The translations under genes were made by a program, and so were the position numbers. From positions 3,926 through 67,925 of the forward strand of contig WJMK01000017.1 in assembly GCA_014727975.1 (NCBI GenBank): a stretch of 64,000 nt of DNA, read 5' to 3'. Below the pieces are notes generated by a model, which saw nothing but the letters and a program-made list of their open reading frames with translations, was not told where the DNA came from and ran no database searches. This document shows positions 11,713 to 53,435 of the stretch, piece after piece. Position 1 is the first letter of the stretch. Each line of letters begins with the position of its first letter. This stretch comes from Candidatus Micrarchaeota archaeon. Its GTDB lineage: Archaea; Micrarchaeota; Micrarchaeia; Anstonellales; Bilamarchaeaceae.

Positions 11713-11812
11713 GGGCCCGTGGCGCAACCTGGATAGCGCGGCTGGCTTCGGATGCCTTCTCCTGATTGCAGGGGAAACCAGCAGGTTGCGGGTTCGAATC
11801 CCGTCGGGCCCA
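11713..11812 (+). tRNA. tRNA-Arg (anticodon UCG) with a ~25-nt intron at the canonical 37/38 position
   Basis: Folded by hand as follows. Acceptor GGGCCCG/CGGGCCC. D arm GCGC-AACCTGGATA-GCGC. Anticodon stem GCTGG/CCAGC, interrupted after CTTCGG by about 25 nt (11752-11776). T arm GCGGG-TTCGAAT-CCCGT. Discriminator A. No encoded CCA. Confidence 0.85.
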
Positions 11813-46599: not shown

Positions 46600-46609
46600 T
46601 TTATTAATA
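46600..46609 (+). promoter_or_regulatory. TATA-like box for the T4SS-like operon
   Basis: TTTATTAATA is preceded by AAAGG (BRE-like) and centred about 34 nt upstream of ATG 46639. Confidence 0.5.
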
Positions 46610-46638
46610 TTATCTTCTTTATCTTACCGGGTTTTGCC

Positions 46639-46884
46639 ATGGCATATATAGAAACACTTCTCTCAAGCTGGCTAGAGACACTGAAGTCAGCAGGCACCAT
46701 GATTTCAATGCTTTTGATAATACTCGGTGGGCTCCTTTATGGGATTGCGCAACTGCAGCCAGGGGAGACCAGGGGAAAATGGCAAACCACAGGAATTGCA
46801 ATCGTTGTTGGAGGGATACTTATCGCCGCTATCCTTGGTGCAGCGGACCTGATACAGGAAGTCTCCTCAAACCTCTTCAAGTGA
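46639..46884 (+). CDS. small two-helix membrane protein, VirB2/TrbC/CedA1-like pilin candidate
   Basis: 81 aa. Two hydrophobic helices (MISMLLIILGGLLYGIAQL and GIAIVVGGILIAAILGAADLI) are joined by a short charged loop (QPGETRGKWQTT). First gene of the tightly packed module. Confidence 0.5.
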   Translation: MAYIETLLSSWLETLKSAGTMISMLLIILGGLLYGIAQLQPGETRGKWQTTGIAIVVGGILIAAILGAADLIQEVSSNLFK

Positions 46885-46888
46885 AACA

Positions 46889-47830
46889 ATGGCTCTGGAT
46901 CTTACAATAGCCGGGACGATAGTTGCATTGTCTATAGTGCTATCCGGGCTCTTAATCGGAATCGGAAGGGCAATTGGCTCCCACAAGGTGGAGTTCTTTG
47001 GAAGAGAGGAGCTAATCCAGGCAGTCATAAATGCCGCACTTGTAGGGGCGTATGCGACAATTACCCTCACCGCAACAGAAATCAGCAGGGAGATTGCAGG
47101 GGACGGGATTTGTGTCGAAGGGGACGCAATTGAAAACCTTCAATGTGTGTATGGGGGGCTTTCTGACAACATCTACATCCTCCTTGTAGAAAGCCTACAC
47201 CTCCACCAGACTGTTGCATACTACCAGTCCCTTGTGCTGAATTTTTCAACCTTTACCATCCAGCCCCTTGCTTACCTCTCTTCAGTTTCTATAATCCTGG
47301 AAGCCCAGGTCCTTGCCCTCCAGCAGCTCCTGCTGATTTCTGAAATCCATGTCCAGCTCCTTGCATTTTTCGGGCCCCAGCTGCTCACCTTCTTTTTCCC
47401 TCTTGGGCTGATATTCCGTGCATTTTTTTCAACCCGCAAGCTTGGAGGGTTCCTTATCGCCCTCTCAATAGGGCTTTACCTTCTCTACCCCTCCCTGATA
47501 ATGGTTTTCCCCCAGCCGGAGCTCAATGGAACAACAGCCGGCCTTGAATCCATGAACAACAACACAAACTACACGATTACCCCTATACTTGACCTAAATG
47601 ACAATTATGCAATTGCAGGAAAGCTGGACAACATGACCAACACAACCGCGGGCGCAGATTTTACAGGGGACGTAACCACCTCGCTCCAGCAGCTCACCTC
47701 TGCAACATCCTCACTTACAATCTTCATACTCATAGCCCCATTATTTTCAATAATCCTGACCTTGATATTTATAAAGGAAGTAACTGATATATTTGGAGGA
47801 GAGTTCTTCTATTCGGTGGGAATGTTATGA
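46889..47830 (+). CDS. polytopic membrane protein (about 6 TM), VirB6/TrbL/CedA-like candidate
   Basis: 313 aa with 5-6 hydrophobic helices plus a sequon-rich loop (NGTT...NNNTNYT...NMTNTT). A 4-nt gap upstream and a 4-nt overlap downstream. Confidence 0.5.
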   Translation: MALDLTIAGTIVALSIVLSGLLIGIGRAIGSHKVEFFGREELIQAVINAALVGAYATITLTATEISREIAGDGICVEGDAIENLQCVYGGLSDNIYILLVESLHLHQTVAYYQSLVLNFSTFTIQPLAYLSSVSIILEAQVLALQQLLLISEIHVQLLAFFGPQLLTFFFPLGLIFRAFFSTRKLGGFLIALSIGLYLLYPSLIMVFPQPELNGTTAGLESMNNNTNYTITPILDLNDNYAIAGKLDNMTNTTAGADFTGDVTTSLQQLTSATSSLTIFILIAPLFSIILTLIFIKEVTDIFGGEFFYSVGML

Positions 47831-48606
47831 TAGCAAACAGAGTCGTCACATTTGCCGCACTTGGCGGGGGCGTGCTTGCCCTTCTCTTAGCCTTTGTAAG
47901 CGGCCAGGTATTGTTCGCATTGATTGCGTCATTGTTTTTTGCGCTTTCAATCATAATCTGGAAGTATGGATATCTCCTCATCCCGTTTTTCACTTCTGCC
48001 ACAAACATAATTGAAGTCCGGGGCAGCTACAACATTCCCCCTACAAGGGATTGCATCACCAAGAGGACAGGAGGGGGGTTCTACGCGTCCAAATTCCTTG
48101 AAATAAAGTTTTATGAAAGCATGATAGATAAAAGGGAAAACGACCGCTCAAGCATGATAGAGTCTTTTGAAAAGGCCCTGGCATCCCTCAAGAACGTGCT
48201 GAAGATTTCACTCATGGTTTCTTCTGTGGACCTTACCAAGCACATTGACAAGATAAAGGCCAAGAGAAGCGCTGCAGAAAGCAAGAGACGCCGTCTTCCG
48301 CCAAACAGCGAAGAGCTTGTCCGCATAGACAGGGAGATTGCAATGTGGAACCGCCTTCTTGAGAGAATAACCCATGGTGACCGCTCCCTTGAAGTCACTG
48401 CATTTGCCCAGACAACCGCGTTTGGGGTCACAAGGGAAGAAGCAATCTCCAAGGTCAGGAGGCAGGCAAAGGAAGCCCGCACAATTATCTCCTCTACCTT
48501 AGGGGCGGATGTAACTGAGCTCCTTGACACAGACATGATAAAATGCTTTGAGTGGAGCTACTTCATCCCTGCGGACACAGAACAGATGCGGGATGAGGTG
48601 TTCTGA
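47827..48606 (+). CDS. membrane protein with 2 N-terminal TMs plus a soluble domain, VirB3/VirB4 N-domain-like candidate
   Basis: TMs FAALGGGVLALLLAFVSG and LFALIASLFFALSIIIW, followed by a charged helical domain of about 190 aa. Its stop overlaps the ATPase start (TGATG). Confidence 0.45.
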   Translation: MIANRVVTFAALGGGVLALLLAFVSGQVLFALIASLFFALSIIIWKYGYLLIPFFTSATNIIEVRGSYNIPPTRDCITKRTGGGFYASKFLEIKFYESMIDKRENDRSSMIESFEKALASLKNVLKISLMVSSVDLTKHIDKIKAKRSAAESKRRRLPPNSEELVRIDREIAMWNRLLERITHGDRSLEVTAFAQTTAFGVTREEAISKVRRQAKEARTIISSTLGADVTELLDTDMIKCFEWSYFIPADTEQMRDEVF

Positions 48607-50048
48607 TGGACCTGAACGAACACCTTACAAGCCAGATGGCCCAGCGCCTTTTTGTAACACACCCTCCTGAGCCCAGACCCTCACTCCTCCTCTCCAGCCC
48701 CACAGAAGGGATATATGTTGGCAAGACCCGCTGGCTCAATGTCCCGGTTTTCTGGGACTACCACAAGCTCATCAACTCCCATATTGCAATTGTAGGAATT
48801 ACAGGAGCAGGGAAATCATATCTTGTAAAGACTTTTCTCACAAGGGCAGCCCTAGTCTGGAACTCAAATGCCATCATCCTGGACTGGACAGGAGAATACA
48901 ATAAATGGGTCCGCCAGGCAGGAGGGAGGGTAATCACCTTAGGAAGGGAGTCCCTCAACCTCCTTGACCTTGCTGGCCTCAAGGTTGCAGAGCGAATAAA
49001 GCAGATAATGTCTGCATTTGAAATCCTCCTGGACCTCCACAATTTCCCTGATGAGCGCTATGAGATAGAGGAGGCACTTGAAGAAGTTTATGAAAAGGTA
49101 AAGAAGCCTACGCTTGCAGACCTTGTTTCTGTTCTTGAAAAGAAAAAGAAAAAGCATTCAGCGCGCCTCCTCAAGACATTTCTTGTTGAAGGAAGTGATT
49201 TCTTTTCCAGGGAATCCACCCTTGAGCTTGAGAAGCTTGCTGAATCCGGCCTGGTATGCATAGACCTCCATTCCCTCCCAACAGAAGAGATGCGCTCCCT
49301 TACTGGGCTCACAATCCTCCAGTTCCTAAAGGAGAAGATGCGGAGGGAGGAGCTAAAGGAAGCAAAAGGAATCAAGCTTTTCGTGGTTGTTGATGAGGCA
49401 TGGAAGATTGCAAGCGATGAAAGGAGCGATGTAATAACCATCGTCCGTGAAGGCCGAAAATACAACTTCAGCCTGATTGTCGCATCCCAGAACCCTACAG
49501 ACATGCACAAGACCATCATATCGAACGTTGGCACAATGTTCGTCCTCCGCCTCGTCCTCCGCGAGTATAAGGACTACATCCGAAATTCACTGAACTATTC
49601 ACAATACATAGATGATGCAATATCCGGTTTTGGGGTAGGGGACGCTGCAGTAAACATGATTTTTTCAGAGCGCTCTGAACGCGCTCACACATTCCTTCTT
49701 GACAAGATAGACGGGGAAGAGCCTCTCTTTGTCTATACAATAAAGGTGGGCAAAATGACAATTGAAGTAGAAAGAGAACAATTTTCAAGAATGCTTTTTG
49801 AGCTTGGGCTTACAGATGAGCAGATAAACCTCGTGAAAGTTGAGTTTGAGCGGGGGGACGGAGTCCTCGAGGCTTCAGCAATCGTCACTCTTCTGGAAAA
49901 ATTCGGATATTCCCATACTTCCATAATGACATTCCTCCGTCAGCTGGGTGTTGAAGAGAAATTCATCGTGGAGGTATTCTCGCTTACAAGAAGGAGGCGT
50001 GCAACAAAAGGGGTTGTCGACCTTAAGCTGAAAGAAGGTGAGGAGTAA
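48606..50048 (+). CDS. VirB4/TrbE/HerA-superfamily (DUF87-type) ATPase
   Basis: Walker A IAIVGITGAGKSY. Walker B LFVVVDEAWKI. A REGRKYNFSLIVASQNPTDM motif typical of VirB4/HerA-FtsK-class ATPases. An extra C-terminal helical domain of about 100 aa. Confidence 0.8.
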   Translation: MDLNEHLTSQMAQRLFVTHPPEPRPSLLLSSPTEGIYVGKTRWLNVPVFWDYHKLINSHIAIVGITGAGKSYLVKTFLTRAALVWNSNAIILDWTGEYNKWVRQAGGRVITLGRESLNLLDLAGLKVAERIKQIMSAFEILLDLHNFPDERYEIEEALEEVYEKVKKPTLADLVSVLEKKKKKHSARLLKTFLVEGSDFFSRESTLELEKLAESGLVCIDLHSLPTEEMRSLTGLTILQFLKEKMRREELKEAKGIKLFVVVDEAWKIASDERSDVITIVREGRKYNFSLIVASQNPTDMHKTIISNVGTMFVLRLVLREYKDYIRNSLNYSQYIDDAISGFGVGDAAVNMIFSERSERAHTFLLDKIDGEEPLFVYTIKVGKMTIEVEREQFSRMLFELGLTDEQINLVKVEFERGDGVLEASAIVTLLEKFGYSHTSIMTFLRQLGVEEKFIVEVFSLTRRRRATKGVVDLKLKEGEE

Positions 50049-50746
50049 TGGAGGAAATAATAAAGATAAAGGCAAAACGGACCAAACCCCTAAAGGAGCT
50101 AACCCCCCTGCTCGGCTCACTTGGATTCAGCAAGATGAGCTACACAAAAGATACTCTTACGGTTGAAAAAGTAGAATCAGAGGACATCTCCGGAAAGCCA
50201 TACCTCTTCTACAAGATTGAACTTTCCCCTAAATCAATACTGATACGGTACCTCCTTCCTTCCCCTGAGAGGAGGATTGCACGCAGCCTCCAGATGGGGC
50301 TTCTCTCCCTCAATGTTTTCCGGATAATATCAAGCCACTACGATGTCAAGGTTTCTTCAGTTTACCCCTTCTATTATGCTCTGCTGAATTCGCTTTCCGA
50401 TGCACTTGAAAAGGAAAAGCTGGAGGCCATGTCAGAGCTAAATGCGCTGAAGACCAGGCACGTTTCCCTTGACAAGAAGTACAAGGACCTTGTGCGCTCA
50501 AGCGAGCAGAATGCGCGCATCCTTGTGGAGGCAGAGCGCAAAAAAGAGGAGCTTGAGGAAAAGCTCAAAAAGATGGAAGGCATCAACGACGAAGTCCTCC
50601 AGGAGCGCCTCTTTGAATGGATAAGGACTCATGACGGAGAGATTAACACATACGAGTTTGCGAGGATAAACTCCACCCCTGTAGGCAGGGTTGAAGAAGG
50701 CCTAAACCACCTGATAAAAAACGGCTATATAAAGCGGAGGTCATAG
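50048..50746 (+). CDS. coiled-coil protein with C-terminal winged-helix-like domain
   Basis: A central heptad-rich segment (EKEKLEAMSELNALKTRHVSLDKKYKDLV...EELEEKLKKMEG), then LFEWIRTHDGEINTYEFARINSTPVGRVEEGLNHLIKNGYIKR. The start overlaps the ATPase stop (TAATG). Confidence 0.45.
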   Translation: MEEIIKIKAKRTKPLKELTPLLGSLGFSKMSYTKDTLTVEKVESEDISGKPYLFYKIELSPKSILIRYLLPSPERRIARSLQMGLLSLNVFRIISSHYDVKVSSVYPFYYALLNSLSDALEKEKLEAMSELNALKTRHVSLDKKYKDLVRSSEQNARILVEAERKKEELEEKLKKMEGINDEVLQERLFEWIRTHDGEINTYEFARINSTPVGRVEEGLNHLIKNGYIKRRS

Positions 50747-50750
50747 GAGC

Positions 50751-50903
50751 ATGCCCCCAAAGCCCAAAAAAAAGGAAGTTTACCATTTCTCCATTGTGAA
50801 GAATTTCCCAAAATACAAATCATTTGAAATACTGAAGGAGCCGGAAGCGGATTTTCTTTCTGCCTTTGTCAGGACTCTTTCACAATTATTTAAGGGTGAT
50901 TGA
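50751..50903 (+). CDS. possible small protein (50 aa), not in the ORF track
   Basis: Hand translation gives MPPKPKKKEVYHFSIVKNFPKYKSFEILKEPEADFLSAFVRTLSQLFKGD. It exactly fills the gap between the module and purD (4 nt and 1 nt spacers). There is no homology evidence. Confidence 0.25.
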   Translation: MPPKPKKKEVYHFSIVKNFPKYKSFEILKEPEADFLSAFVRTLSQLFKGD

Positions 50904-50904
50904 A

Positions 50905-52200
50905 ATGAAGGTTTTGCTTGTAGGTAGCGGAGCAAGGGAGCATATAATCGCGGAGCAGCTTTCCAGGAGTTCTGAACTGTATTCCATAATGCCAAAGAAG
51001 CATCCGGGGATTGCCTCCCTTTCTGAAGAATTTCTTGTGCATGACCCTGCAGATTCCCCAGTTGTCGGACAATGGGCCAAATCAAAGGGCGTGGATGTTG
51101 CTTTTGTAAGCCCGGATGGGCTACTTGCCCAGGGGGTGACAGACACATTTGCAGACCTGGGCATACCCTGTGCATCCCCTCTCAAAAAAGCCGCAAGGAT
51201 TGAATGGGACAAGGGATATGCACGCAGTCTCATGCGCGCAAAGGAAATCCCTGGATGCCCTGCCATTAAGGTTGCCTCCAGCATAGACGAAGCAAAACAG
51301 GCAATTTCCGAAATCGGGGAAGTTGCAGTAAAGCCAATAGGCCTTACAGGGGGCAAGGGAGTAAAGATTGCAGGGGAGCACCTTAAGAGCGAGCAGGATG
51401 TGCTCAGCTATTGTGCGGAGCTGTTAGAGAAAGACGGAAGCGTGCTCATAGAAGAAAAGCTTGATGGGGAGGAATTTACCCTCCAGGCATTTTGTGATGG
51501 GGAAAGGCTTGCCCTTATGCCCCCTGTCCAGGACCACAAGCGTGCGTTTGAAAATGACGATGGCCCCAACACAGGAGGCATGGGCAGTTATTCCACAGGC
51601 AAGCTCCTCCCGTTCCTTGAGCAGAAAGACCTTGACTCCGCAAAGGAAATAATGGAGAGGACACTGGCAGAGATGAAAAATGACGGCAACCCATTTACCG
51701 GAATCCTCTATGGGCAGTTCATGCTTACAAAGGATGGGATAAAAGTAATTGAGTTCAACGCAAGGTTCGGGGACCCAGAAGCAATGAATGTTCTTTCCCT
51801 CCTCAAAACCCAGCTTTCTGAAGTTTTCCTTTCCATGGCAGAAGGCAAGCTCATTCCTGTGAGTTTTGCCAGCAATTGCACGGTTGTCAAATACCTTGTT
51901 CCCGAGGGGTATCCCACAGAAGGCAAGCGGGACCAGCATGTTGCTGTGGATGAAGAGGGCCTCTGGAACTCAGGTGTGAAGCTCTATTTTGGCTCAGTGT
52001 ATGAGAAGGACGGGGCAATCTATACCACAACATCGCGCACTGCTGCCCTTGTGGGGCAGGCAGAGGACCTGGAGGAGGCCGAAAAAGCCACAGAATCCGC
52101 CACCAGGTTCATAAGCGGCCCGCTCTGGCACAGGAAGGACATAGGCACAAAAAGCCTAATAGGTCGCCGAATGGAGCACGTTAGGCGGTTGAAGGCATGA
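50905..52200 (+). CDS. purD: phosphoribosylamine--glycine ligase
   Basis: MKVLLVGSGAREHII..., ATP-grasp motifs (VKPIGLTGGKGV, EEKLDGEEFTLQAF, EFNARFGDPE). The ATG at 50905 is preferred. Confidence 0.95.
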   Translation: MKVLLVGSGAREHIIAEQLSRSSELYSIMPKKHPGIASLSEEFLVHDPADSPVVGQWAKSKGVDVAFVSPDGLLAQGVTDTFADLGIPCASPLKKAARIEWDKGYARSLMRAKEIPGCPAIKVASSIDEAKQAISEIGEVAVKPIGLTGGKGVKIAGEHLKSEQDVLSYCAELLEKDGSVLIEEKLDGEEFTLQAFCDGERLALMPPVQDHKRAFENDDGPNTGGMGSYSTGKLLPFLEQKDLDSAKEIMERTLAEMKNDGNPFTGILYGQFMLTKDGIKVIEFNARFGDPEAMNVLSLLKTQLSEVFLSMAEGKLIPVSFASNCTVVKYLVPEGYPTEGKRDQHVAVDEEGLWNSGVKLYFGSVYEKDGAIYTTTSRTAALVGQAEDLEEAEKATESATRFISGPLWHRKDIGTKSLIGRRMEHVRRLKA

Positions 52201-53435
52201 GGAACGCCCTGCTTGCATTCCTTTTTATTTTTCCTGTATTTGCATTTTCCTCCGGAAGCGCAGTTATTTCTATAGAGAAGACATGGAGCCTCCATGCAGA
52301 AGAAATGATTACGGATTTAGAGCTGAACGGGACCTTCCTTGTCAAGAACGACTACCAGGAAATTCTCCAGATGAATGTCACGGATGAAGGCGCAAGGTTT
52401 GAAGAGTCCAACGGAACGGTGAGGGTTGTGTTTAATGCAGATAAATTTTCAGGCGAAAAACAGATAACTGCATCCGCGCTTGTCCGCACCGAATATCCCC
52501 TGGAAATACGCACAAACCCCGAGTTCATCCCCAGCCCTGCAAATGCATCCGGACTAATTGAATATGATGAGCACATTTCTTCAACTTCTGAGGCAATCTC
52601 TTCAGGAAAAAAAACCGAGCTGGAGGCGGTTGTGGCTGTTGCCGACTGGGTGCATGACTATCTTTCTTATGACATGGAGTTCTGGGGCAGCCCTTCTTCT
52701 GCCAAAACGGTTTTTAATGAACCGCGAGGTGTTTGTGTTGGTTATGCCCATCTTTTCATCTCAATGCTCCGTTCTCTTGGCTTTGAAACAAGGTTTGTCT
52801 CTGGATATGCATTTGCAGAAGAATGGCAGCCACACGCCTGGGCAGAAGTAAAGATAGGAGAAAGCTGGGTTCCAGTGGACCCTACATTCAGGGAGGTTGG
52901 GGCGCTTGATGCCCGCCATCTTGCTTCCAGTTATTCATCTGACCAGAGCGGGGCGTATGACCTGCTTGTTGCAAGGGGGAACGGGTTCGATTTCAACAGC
53001 ACTGTTTCTGTGTCAACTTCTGAGAAGGAGAAGTTTGAGGAGTTAATTTTTGTACACACTGTCCTCTATGATGATGACCTCAAGGTTACGCTCTATAATC
53101 CAAGCAGCAGCTACATCACCCCGACATATGAGTTCGCAATGCCGGAATTCATCCTTACAAAAGACACACGCATCATAGTAATCCCTCCTTCCTCCTCAAA
53201 GGAGATAACCTATCGCCTGAATACAGGTGAGCTGGAGGCAGGGTATACCCACAATGTGCCCTACTACCTCTCTGTCCAGGGAACCTCTGTAGAAGGAGAG
53301 CATTCTATAATGAAGGGGAGTATTGCGGACGCGGAGCCTGAAGAGGAATATTCTGAGACCCAGCAGCATGAATCATGCCCGCTTATTGCACTTTCCCTTG
53401 CCATGGGCCTTGCAGGCCTGTTCTTAAGGAGTTAA
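52197..53435 (+). CDS. secreted transglutaminase-like (Cys-His-Asp) protein with C-terminal TM anchor
   Basis: Signal MRNALLAFLFIFPVFAFS. Core motifs: GVCVGYAHLFISMLRSLG (Cys), HAWAEV (His), VDPT (Asp). C-terminal TM LIALSLAMGLAGLFL. The ATG overlaps the purD stop. Confidence 0.8.
   Translation: MRNALLAFLFIFPVFAFSSGSAVISIEKTWSLHAEEMITDLELNGTFLVKNDYQEILQMNVTDEGARFEESNGTVRVVFNADKFSGEKQITASALVRTEYPLEIRTNPEFIPSPANASGLIEYDEHISSTSEAISSGKKTELEAVVAVADWVHDYLSYDMEFWGSPSSAKTVFNEPRGVCVGYAHLFISMLRSLGFETRFVSGYAFAEEWQPHAWAEVKIGESWVPVDPTFREVGALDARHLASSYSSDQSGAYDLLVARGNGFDFNSTVSVSTSEKEKFEELIFVHTVLYDDDLKVTLYNPSSSYITPTYEFAMPEFILTKDTRIIVIPPSSSKEITYRLNTGELEAGYTHNVPYYLSVQGTSVEGEHSIMKGSIADAEPEEEYSETQQHESCPLIALSLAMGLAGLFLRS

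Follow-up and report, generated by a model that had tools for sequence, protein, structure and literature searches.

What does a tightly packed run of genes, labeled in GenBank as hypothetical or DUF87, do in the chromosome of a micrarchaeon? We asked this of an operon in a 64,000-nucleotide (nt) stretch of the Candidatus Micrarchaeota archaeon contig WJMK01000017.1 (assembly GCA_014727975.1, positions 3,926 to 67,925; this whole stretch is called the window here). A preliminary description had recognized five genes between window positions 46600 and 50746 (g1 to g5 here) and compared them with VirB2, VirB6, VirB3, and VirB4 of type IV secretion systems (T4SS) and with Ced and Ted, domesticated T4SS that import DNA (PMC9905601). 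Our comparisons lead to a similar answer: the operon very probably encodes a T4SS-derived, Ced/Ted-like apparatus, and the parts by which a minimal core of that kind can be identified are a member of a pilin family and a CedB/VirB4 protein split over two genes. The special features of the system are this split VirB4, the accessory proteins g5 and g6, and conservation across a whole phylum of the DPANN lineage.

The motor genes and their relation to CedB and VirB4

The motor domain is encoded by g4, in which a Walker A motif (GITGAGKS), a Walker B motif (VVVDEAW), and REGRKYNFSLIVASQNPTD were read directly, and to which Pfam matched the HerA central domain/DUF87 (2.4 × 10−18) and AAA_10. The top NCBIfam model was CedB (104 bits; model positions 251 to 573 of 590), followed by the VirB4-like CD1110 model (92 bits; 2 × 10−26) and then by VirB4_plasma, CedD, and VirB4_CagE, with HerA only after these (7 × 10−16); the CedB, CD1110, VirB4_plasma, and VirB4_CagE matches ranged from 6.8 × 10−30 (CedB) to 7 × 10−17, short of the curated cut-offs. 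A profile search of the PDB aligned the VirB4 structure 4ag5 with residues 35 to 300 (3 × 10−13). The same affinity was seen in 10 of 10 relatives sampled from the top 150 of an exhaustive ATPase search, all of which scored best with CedB, the fused ones among them spanning positions 13 to 587 of the CedB model. The motifs and model matches bear out the earlier assignment of g4 to the VirB4/TrbE/HerA class of ATPases, within which g4 is a CedB homologue and not a CedB equivalog.

Homologues of g4 number more than 1,000, and those that carry a taxonomic name are from Micrarchaeota, Micrarchaeia, Bilamarchaeaceae, or similar metagenome-assembled genomes (MAGs); among the Micrarchaeota matches listed, identity to g4 was 59 to 95% over the full length. 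In a scan of GTDB species representatives, 404 stretches encoded a relative of the ATPase, and the best 80, all from Micrarchaeota-type MAGs, were examined further; locus comparisons covered ±7 kb around each homologue, and individual loci are referred to by number (L001 and so on). Past the point where the CedB model ends, g4 continues into a conserved C-terminal extension of ∼130 amino acids (aa) (residues ∼350 to 480; positions 49650 to 50045), which is common to distant relatives of 440 to 465 aa and gave no family or PDB match. In three lineages, the P-loop of g4 (the Walker A region) holds an intein of the LAGLIDADG type (Table 1). The P-loop is a typical place for inteins to lodge in conserved proteins, and we count its occupation in some g4 orthologues as a sign of a conserved motor. 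A rough neighbor-joining tree placed the Micrarchaeota-type five-gene ATPases, together with that of L084, apart from the nine-gene families (described below), with families of ∼370 aa and ∼450 aa on the other side of the separation; reference sequences of HerA, FtsK, and bacterial VirB4 were absent from the tree, and gap filtering removed the fused CedB-like sequences.

The gene ahead of the motor, g3, appears to supply the part of VirB4 that g4 lacks. In an AlphaFold 2 model of g3 (predicted local distance difference test [pLDDT] score of 75), helices 2 to 25 and 28 to 55 form a hairpin that is followed by an alpha/beta domain, consistent with the two N-terminal transmembrane (TM) segments and soluble domain first described; a simple hydropathy scan fuses this N-terminal hydrophobic stretch into one segment. 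When the model was compared with the PDB by Foldseek, TrwK/VirB4 of plasmid R388 filled ranks 1 to 11 (best E = 2.2 × 10−4, probability 1.0; TM-scores modest, at 0.31 to 0.35), and a sequence-profile search of the PDB with g3 returned nothing useful. The g3 profile was also colinear with the N-terminal 250 residues of P0482 (hhalign, E = 1.7 × 10−5), with the same comparison giving E = 7.7 × 10−4 for P0440 and E = 0.024 for P0398; these three proteins are fused, full-length CedB-like relatives from the exhaustive ATPase search. The g3 orthologue of L084 (hhalign, 97.9%) matched CedB model positions 5 to 186 (E = 2.4 × 10−9) and the adjoining ATPase covered positions 223 to 531, so that the pair lies collinearly on CedB. 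The counterpart in L082 aligned with g3 at 96.7%, and mean column identity among g3 sequences was 69%.

Taken together, the collinear pair in L084, the alignments with fused relatives, and the TrwK fold indicate that g3 and g4 are a CedB/VirB4 protein predicted to be split between its N-terminal and motor domains. No VirB3 sequence or fold match to g3 was obtained; by its position in the model, the TM hairpin sits at the VirB3 place of VirB3-VirB4 fusions. The VirB3-VirB4-like module of the preliminary description is therefore upheld by the TrwK/VirB4 fold and the collinear CedB coverage.

Pilin, membrane, and accessory proteins

The first gene, g1, encodes two hydrophobic helices joined by a basic loop (QPGETRGKW). 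Its own match to the T4SS_pilin family PF18895 was below threshold (E = 0.19); among 14 orthologues, 12 matched PF18895 and 5 matched PF04956 (TrbC/VirB2). Scores passed the Pfam gathering cut-offs in the g1 orthologue of L020, also from Micrarchaeota (28.0 bits for TrbC, with a cut-off of 27.9), and in the first gene of the collinear module in L085 (28.0 bits for T4SS_pilin, with a cut-off of 26.6). Alignment by hhalign linked g1 to the first genes of L084 (99.7%) and L082 (97.5%), and a sequence-profile search of the PDB gave nothing useful. There is thus good family-level evidence, from sequence comparison, for placing g1 with the VirB2/TrbC pilins, as had been proposed.

Less can be said of g2. 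Of its six hydrophobic segments, four are strong and two are borderline; N-X-S/T sequons occur five times in the loop from residue 213 to 253 and once more at residue 118, and the first external region holds two invariant cysteines (Cys75 and Cys86). Searches of Pfam, NCBIfam, and PDB sequences with g2 returned no matches. Foldseek comparison of its AlphaFold 2 model (pLDDT of 82) with the PDB found generic helical bundles only, none of them significant, and comparison with a viral library found a weak match to a TrbL-annotated phage protein (E = 0.22; TMq of 0.33). The second genes of the modules in L082 and L084 aligned with g2 by hhalign (99.5 and 98.9%, respectively). Position, size, and topology suggest a polytopic glycoprotein that is a candidate for a VirB6/CedA-like platform or channel. 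The earlier comparison of g2 with VirB6 thus finds agreement in position, size, and topology but in no significant sequence or fold match; likewise, the structural comparison that had been suggested as a check recovered the VirB4 fold for g3 but nothing significant for g2.

As first described, the coiled coil of g5 is followed by a winged helix at the C terminus, and the best PDB match of that domain was the winged helix of CdvB/ESCRT-III (2xvc; E = 0.0013). Winged-helix matches of the EAP30 type were found in 9 of 25 members of the g5 family, and both matches hint that the domain may bind proteins rather than DNA. The corresponding place in L082, L084 to L087, L089, and L090 is taken by proteins of 179 to 238 aa, and similarity to g5 at the sequence level was detected in L082 (BLAST E = 0.002) and is evident in L090. 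We regard g5 as a candidate adaptor or regulator.

Directly 3′ of g5 lies a further open reading frame (ORF), g6. A hidden Markov model (HMM) of g6, which carries the motif Y.F.I.K..P...SF.I.K, matched at this place in ∼74 of the 80 Micrarchaeota loci, including loci without purD, and L088 has it as a called gene of 51 aa. Neither the PDB nor the distant modules yielded a relative, and none was detectable outside Micrarchaeota. We consider g6 the probable sixth gene of the operon.

Operon layout, conservation, and collinear modules

All five genes first described are present in the same orientation (Table 1), separated in order by 4, −4, −1, and −1 nt, which agrees with the tight or overlapping packing noted before. 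The extent of the operon had been drawn too short: g6 begins 4 nt past the g5 stop and was overlooked, as was the packing onward into purD, which follows after a gap of 1 nt and is itself overlapped by 4 nt by a transglutaminase-like gene. Cotranscription of purD and the transglutaminase-like gene with the operon is plausible. A functional tie of either to the system is speculative, although a transglutaminase-like surface protein could be linked to it, for example, through envelope remodeling. The TATA-like element TTTATTAATATT that precedes g1 is kept as TTTAT(A/T)(A/T)A.. 5′ of g1 orthologues at 11 other loci, in support of the box proposed earlier, and may act as the promoter.

The housekeeping flanks were all identified, with pheT, purF, and NFACT-R upstream and purD downstream, the last followed by the transglutaminase-like gene and PCNA. 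In the GenBank annotation of this contig (68.9 kb), g1 is GF412_01985, g2 is GF412_01990 (100% identity), g5 is GF412_02005, and g4 is a "DUF87 domain-containing protein"; every close homologue of g2 and g3 is labeled "hypothetical protein," with no Pfam domain.

Table 1. Positions of the operon genes, adjoining features, and related features at other loci (window coordinates unless a locus number is given)
Feature	Position	Strand	Description
TATA-like element TTTATTAATATT	46600-46611	+	about 30-40 nt 5′ of the g1 ATG
g1	46639-46884	+	81 aa, VirB2/TrbC-type pilin candidate
g2	46889-47830	+	313 aa, polytopic membrane protein, VirB6/CedA position
g3	47827-48606	+	259 aa, TM hairpin and VirB4/CedB N-terminal domain
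g4	48606-50048	+	480 aa, FtsK/HerA-superfamily ATPase
g5	50048-50746	+	232 aa, alpha/beta domain, coiled coil, and winged helix
g6	50751-50903	+	50 aa, soluble basic protein
purD	50905-52200	+	ATG at 50905
Transglutaminase-like membrane protein	52197-53435	+	Transglut_core, E = 1.6 × 10−26
Intein-bearing ATPase orthologues	L056:5276-8290, L067:2406-5483, L080:4846-7890		∼1,000 aa
Extra genes of nine-gene modules	L082:8094-11952, L085:7002-10123, L086:9040-12422, L087:8791-12452		

The operon was syntenic, in an unchanged chromosomal setting, at 80 of 80 loci. Across these loci, g4 and g5 were adjacent in every case, g3 was present in 71, and g2 was present in 60, with many of the loci that lack g2 or g3 ending at a contig edge. 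Conservation of gene order, which the preliminary description had named as a check, therefore holds for g2 to g5 but not for g1, which adjoins the other genes in only 16 loci, the clade closest to the window. In 70 loci purD came next, and 54 had the transglutaminase-like gene. Some lineages carry inserts between g3 and g4, which include beta-helix proteins, radical SAM proteins, and an esterase and are not counted as components since they are heterogeneous across lineages. Two of these are giant right-handed beta-helix/NosD-like proteins of 1,200 to 1,259 aa (L034:3316-6918 and L052:3157-6936). We conclude that the operon is chromosomally fixed and vertically inherited across Micrarchaeota.

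Traces of mobility were sought by domain, repeat, and composition checks, and none was found, as had been claimed. No relaxase, VirD4-type, or integrase domain was present in the Pfam-labeled ±10 kb around the operon of a 94%-identical relative (L088), and no att-like repeats flank the operon, where only short chance repeats were seen. Composition is flat across the region, with no island of deviating GC content, and a scan of IMG/VR viral contigs returned no relatives. The operon is not a conjugative element. Chromosomal neighbors shared across lineages and the lack of mobility genes favor a domesticated system over a plasmid remnant, in agreement with the earlier view.

Two side observations concern other genes of the region. 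In a 94%-related MAG (L001:9293-11617 and L088:12302-14617), purD is 771 aa long and has a faint LAGLIDADG match, suggesting an intein; purD of the window, at 444 aa counted from TTG, has no such match. Elsewhere in the window, Rfam recognized a 100-nt tRNA on the + strand (11713 to 11812; 55 bits) that ARAGORN did not report and that probably contains an intron.

Collinear modules were also found in other archaea, although the taxonomic labels of L084 to L090 are missing or unreliable. The five genes measure 131, 340, 267, 461, and 232 aa in L082, which is labeled Marsarchaeota, and 82, 289, 232, 479, and 238 aa in L084; L089 and L090 likewise have five genes, the first of 80 to 87 aa. A nine-gene form occurs in L082, L085, L086, and L087, adding a protein of 164 to 329 aa, two small multi-TM proteins, and a second ATPase of 725 to 788 aa (Table 1), for which CedD was the best model (5.5 × 10−11). 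Searches of the window and of the Micrarchaeota flanks did not find the small membrane genes of this form. Most of the distant modules sit among housekeeping genes (a ribosomal protein operon, purH, MCM, ABCE1, and diphthamide synthase). Beside the module of L086 (JGI Ga0307374_10000001, 587 kb) lies an archaeal ribosomal-protein operon (S4e, L5, L14, S17, and RNase P p29); an ATPase identical to that of L086 is labeled "Candidatus Acidoferrales bacterium" in NCBI, and this is probably a mis-binned archaeal contig. The five- and nine-gene modules form a wider, apparently undescribed, archaeal family of T4SS-like systems: our literature search found no description of the module in Micrarchaeota or DPANN, or of the nine-gene family, with incomplete coverage that leaves an earlier description possible.

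Known systems, rival readings, and possible function

Among characterized systems, the closest counterpart is Ced of Sulfolobales (CedA, CedA1, CedA2, CedB, CedD, and CedE), which likewise derives from a T4SS, is encoded in the chromosome, and lacks a relaxase. Its pilin is VirB2-like with two helices and is accompanied by a polytopic membrane protein (PMC9905601), and g1 belongs to the same VirB2-like class as CedA1 (PMC9905601). The N-terminal domains of CedB and CedD are VirB4-like (PMC11868833), and CedB was the best curated model for g4 and, via the L084 orthologue, for the g3 domain. At E ≤ 1, g1, g2, and g3 matched none of the Ced component models in NCBIfam, a library whose inclusion of CedA and CedA1 models is uncertain. 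CedB is a single polypeptide, whereas the Micrarchaeota motor is split over two genes; the Micrarchaeota operon also differs in having the extra genes g5 and g6, in having no CedD paralogue nearby, and in belonging to a mesophilic DPANN archaeon. We know of no link between this operon and UV irradiation or DNA damage. By description, Ted of Thermoproteales (TedA, TedB, and TedC) follows the same three-part plan, with a VirB2-like pilin, a VirB4-like ATPase, and a VirB6-like membrane protein (a role for which g2 is the candidate here) encoded in the chromosome (PMC9905601). However, Ted parts are reported to lack recognizable sequence similarity even to Ced, and Ted loci are often accompanied by HerA, ParA, and Rad50, none of which lies around the operon of the 94%-identical relative.

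Conjugative T4SS of monoderms and archaea (the MPF_FATA class, with VirB2/PrgC-like, VirB3, VirB4, and VirB6 proteins) resemble the operon in their pilin families (PF18895 and PF04956, found in g1 orthologues), in the VirB4 N-terminal fold of g3 and the TM hairpin ahead of it, as in VirB3-VirB4 fusions, and in the CD1110 and VirB4_plasma models matched by g4. In contrast, the Micrarchaeota operon has no relaxase, VirD4/TcpA, VirB1-type hydrolase, VirB8, or other scaffold protein, its VirB4 is divided at the junction of the N- and C-terminal domains, and it lies outside any mobile element. A different kind of parallel is offered by the ultra-small, host-dependent Patescibacteria, in which a relaxase-less, VirB4-centered chromosomal cluster with VirB2-like pilins is near-universal (PMC12102498) and has apparently been recruited to a role outside conjugation, being reported essential for epibiotic growth (PMC12102498). 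In that bacterial system, VirB4 is full length and falls within bacterial MPF_FATA, and the accessory genes are different; the resemblance is one of lifestyle by analogy and not of orthology. Overall, we lean somewhat toward a chromosomally fixed T4SS derivative reduced to its inner-membrane core, like the Ced and Ted importers.

Several observations weigh against a Ced/Ted-like apparatus. With an HMM of diverse pilins, no match was found in the ±7 kb of the other 64 of the 80 Micrarchaeota loci, so a pilus is not guaranteed in every lineage, and g2 does not significantly resemble VirB6, TrbL, or CedA in either sequence or fold. CedD is needed for DNA import in Sulfolobales; with the L085 and L082 proteins (725 and 788 aa, respectively) as queries, searches of the 64-kb window and of the ±7 kb around the operon at the 80 Micrarchaeota loci recovered no CedD-like ATPase. 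The CedB score of g4 is far below the 700-bit equivalog cut-off of that model (NF041017), solved HerA structures outranked VirB4 for g4 in the PDB profile search, and PADLOC HerA models scored up to 96.6 bits, near the CedB score. These HerA scores, with the Pfam HerA central domain and membership of g4 in the same FtsK/HerA superfamily, are what would speak for a membrane-tethered HerA-type helicase or translocase acting in DNA repair or antivirus defense and unrelated to secretion, which we nonetheless judge very improbable. Since HerA models score nearly as well, the ATPase domain alone does not discriminate, in agreement with the former classification of CedB and CedD with HerA (PMC11868833), and identity is decided by the N-terminal domain and the pilin. 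That domain in g3 is of the VirB4 type and not a HAS-barrel, a VirB2/TrbC pilin lies within the operon, and its other partners are membrane proteins; CedB and VirB4 models rank above HerA models in NCBIfam, and no NurA, Mre11, Rad50, Sir2, or nuclease or other effector partner was found in the neighborhood of the 94%-identical relative. A defense system was rejected on the ground that PADLOC matched the ATPase only, with no match for g1, g2, g3, or g5.

It is hardly credible that an integrated conjugative plasmid or element has decayed here to a nonfunctional operon, even though the gene set of the operon is like a subset of MPF_FATA-type conjugation genes and archaeal conjugative elements do integrate into chromosomes (PMC9905601). 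Every ORF is intact, g3 and g4 are strongly conserved at the identities given above, the chromosomal neighbors are the same across many species-level lineages, and no integrase, relaxase, att repeat, composition shift, or IMG/VR relative was found. Purifying selection across the phylum refutes decay, and an integrated element was rejected on synteny, composition, and repeats. A more serious rival keeps the T4SS-derived machine and changes its task. Micrarchaeota, for which co-cultures with Thermoplasmatales exist, depend on host archaea. This lifestyle, together with the relaxase-less T4SS of Patescibacteria, suggests that the machine could serve symbiont-host contact rather than DNA import, forming a pilus or conduit that fastens the cell to its host archaeon and carries proteins, lipids, or metabolites, a possibility that we hold to be real though on balance doubtful. 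It would suit a module conserved at all 80 Micrarchaeota-type loci examined that has neither a relaxase or VirD4-type domain (±10 kb of the 94%-identical relative) nor a nearby CedD-like second ATPase, and it would suit the giant beta-helix surface proteins inserted within the operon in some lineages, the syntenic transglutaminase-like surface protein downstream, the epibiotic role of the Patescibacteria system, and the VirB4-like domains borne by giant surface proteins of nanohaloarchaea (PMC10266531). Yet homologous modules occur in archaea not known as symbionts (Marsarchaeota and the 587-kb contig with the archaeal ribosomal-protein operon), the closest characterized homologues, CedB and CedD, move DNA, and no effector candidates were identified.

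For the Ced/Ted-like apparatus, a mechanism can be proposed from the established biology of T4SS VirB4 and from Ced and Ted (PMC9905601, PMC11868833). In this scheme, g3 and g4 would assemble into a membrane-anchored, hexameric VirB4-like ATPase docked on a platform of g2, with g5 acting on the ATPase from the cytoplasm as an adaptor or regulator and g6 as a cytoplasmic accessory alongside g5. ATP hydrolysis would pull the g1 pilin out of the membrane, and the extracted pilin would form either a lipid-associated, conjugative-type pilus or a short conduit through the surface layer. The same complex would move a polymer across the single membrane, most likely DNA and inward, as in Ced. Function, whether DNA import or host conduit, can be suggested by analogy; DNA taken up by the cell is a tentative assignment of the cargo.

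What the system may mean for Micrarchaeota depends on that function. In the boldest and rather unlikely case, the split-VirB4 pilus machine is the physical conduit of the Micrarchaeota DPANN symbiosis and its nine-gene relatives are a so far unrecognized, archaea-wide family of domesticated T4SS well beyond Ced and Ted; if so, the symbiont would draw DNA, nucleotides, or other macromolecules, possibly including pilin-bound lipids, from its host through a conjugation-derived tube. To our knowledge, domesticated archaeal T4SS have so far been established only as Ced in Sulfolobales and Ted in Thermoproteales. The operon would extend this principle to a whole DPANN phylum, and its collinear relatives would extend it to Marsarchaeota and further archaeal lineages. 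The natural division of VirB4 at the boundary of its N-terminal and ATPase domains provides a handle on the mechanism and evolution of this motor, and the parallel with Patescibacteria suggests convergent reuse of conjugation machinery in ultra-small, host-dependent prokaryotes. For Micrarchaeota themselves, a concrete and conserved set of genes, annotated only as hypothetical or DUF87, now stands as a candidate for taking up DNA or interacting with the host.

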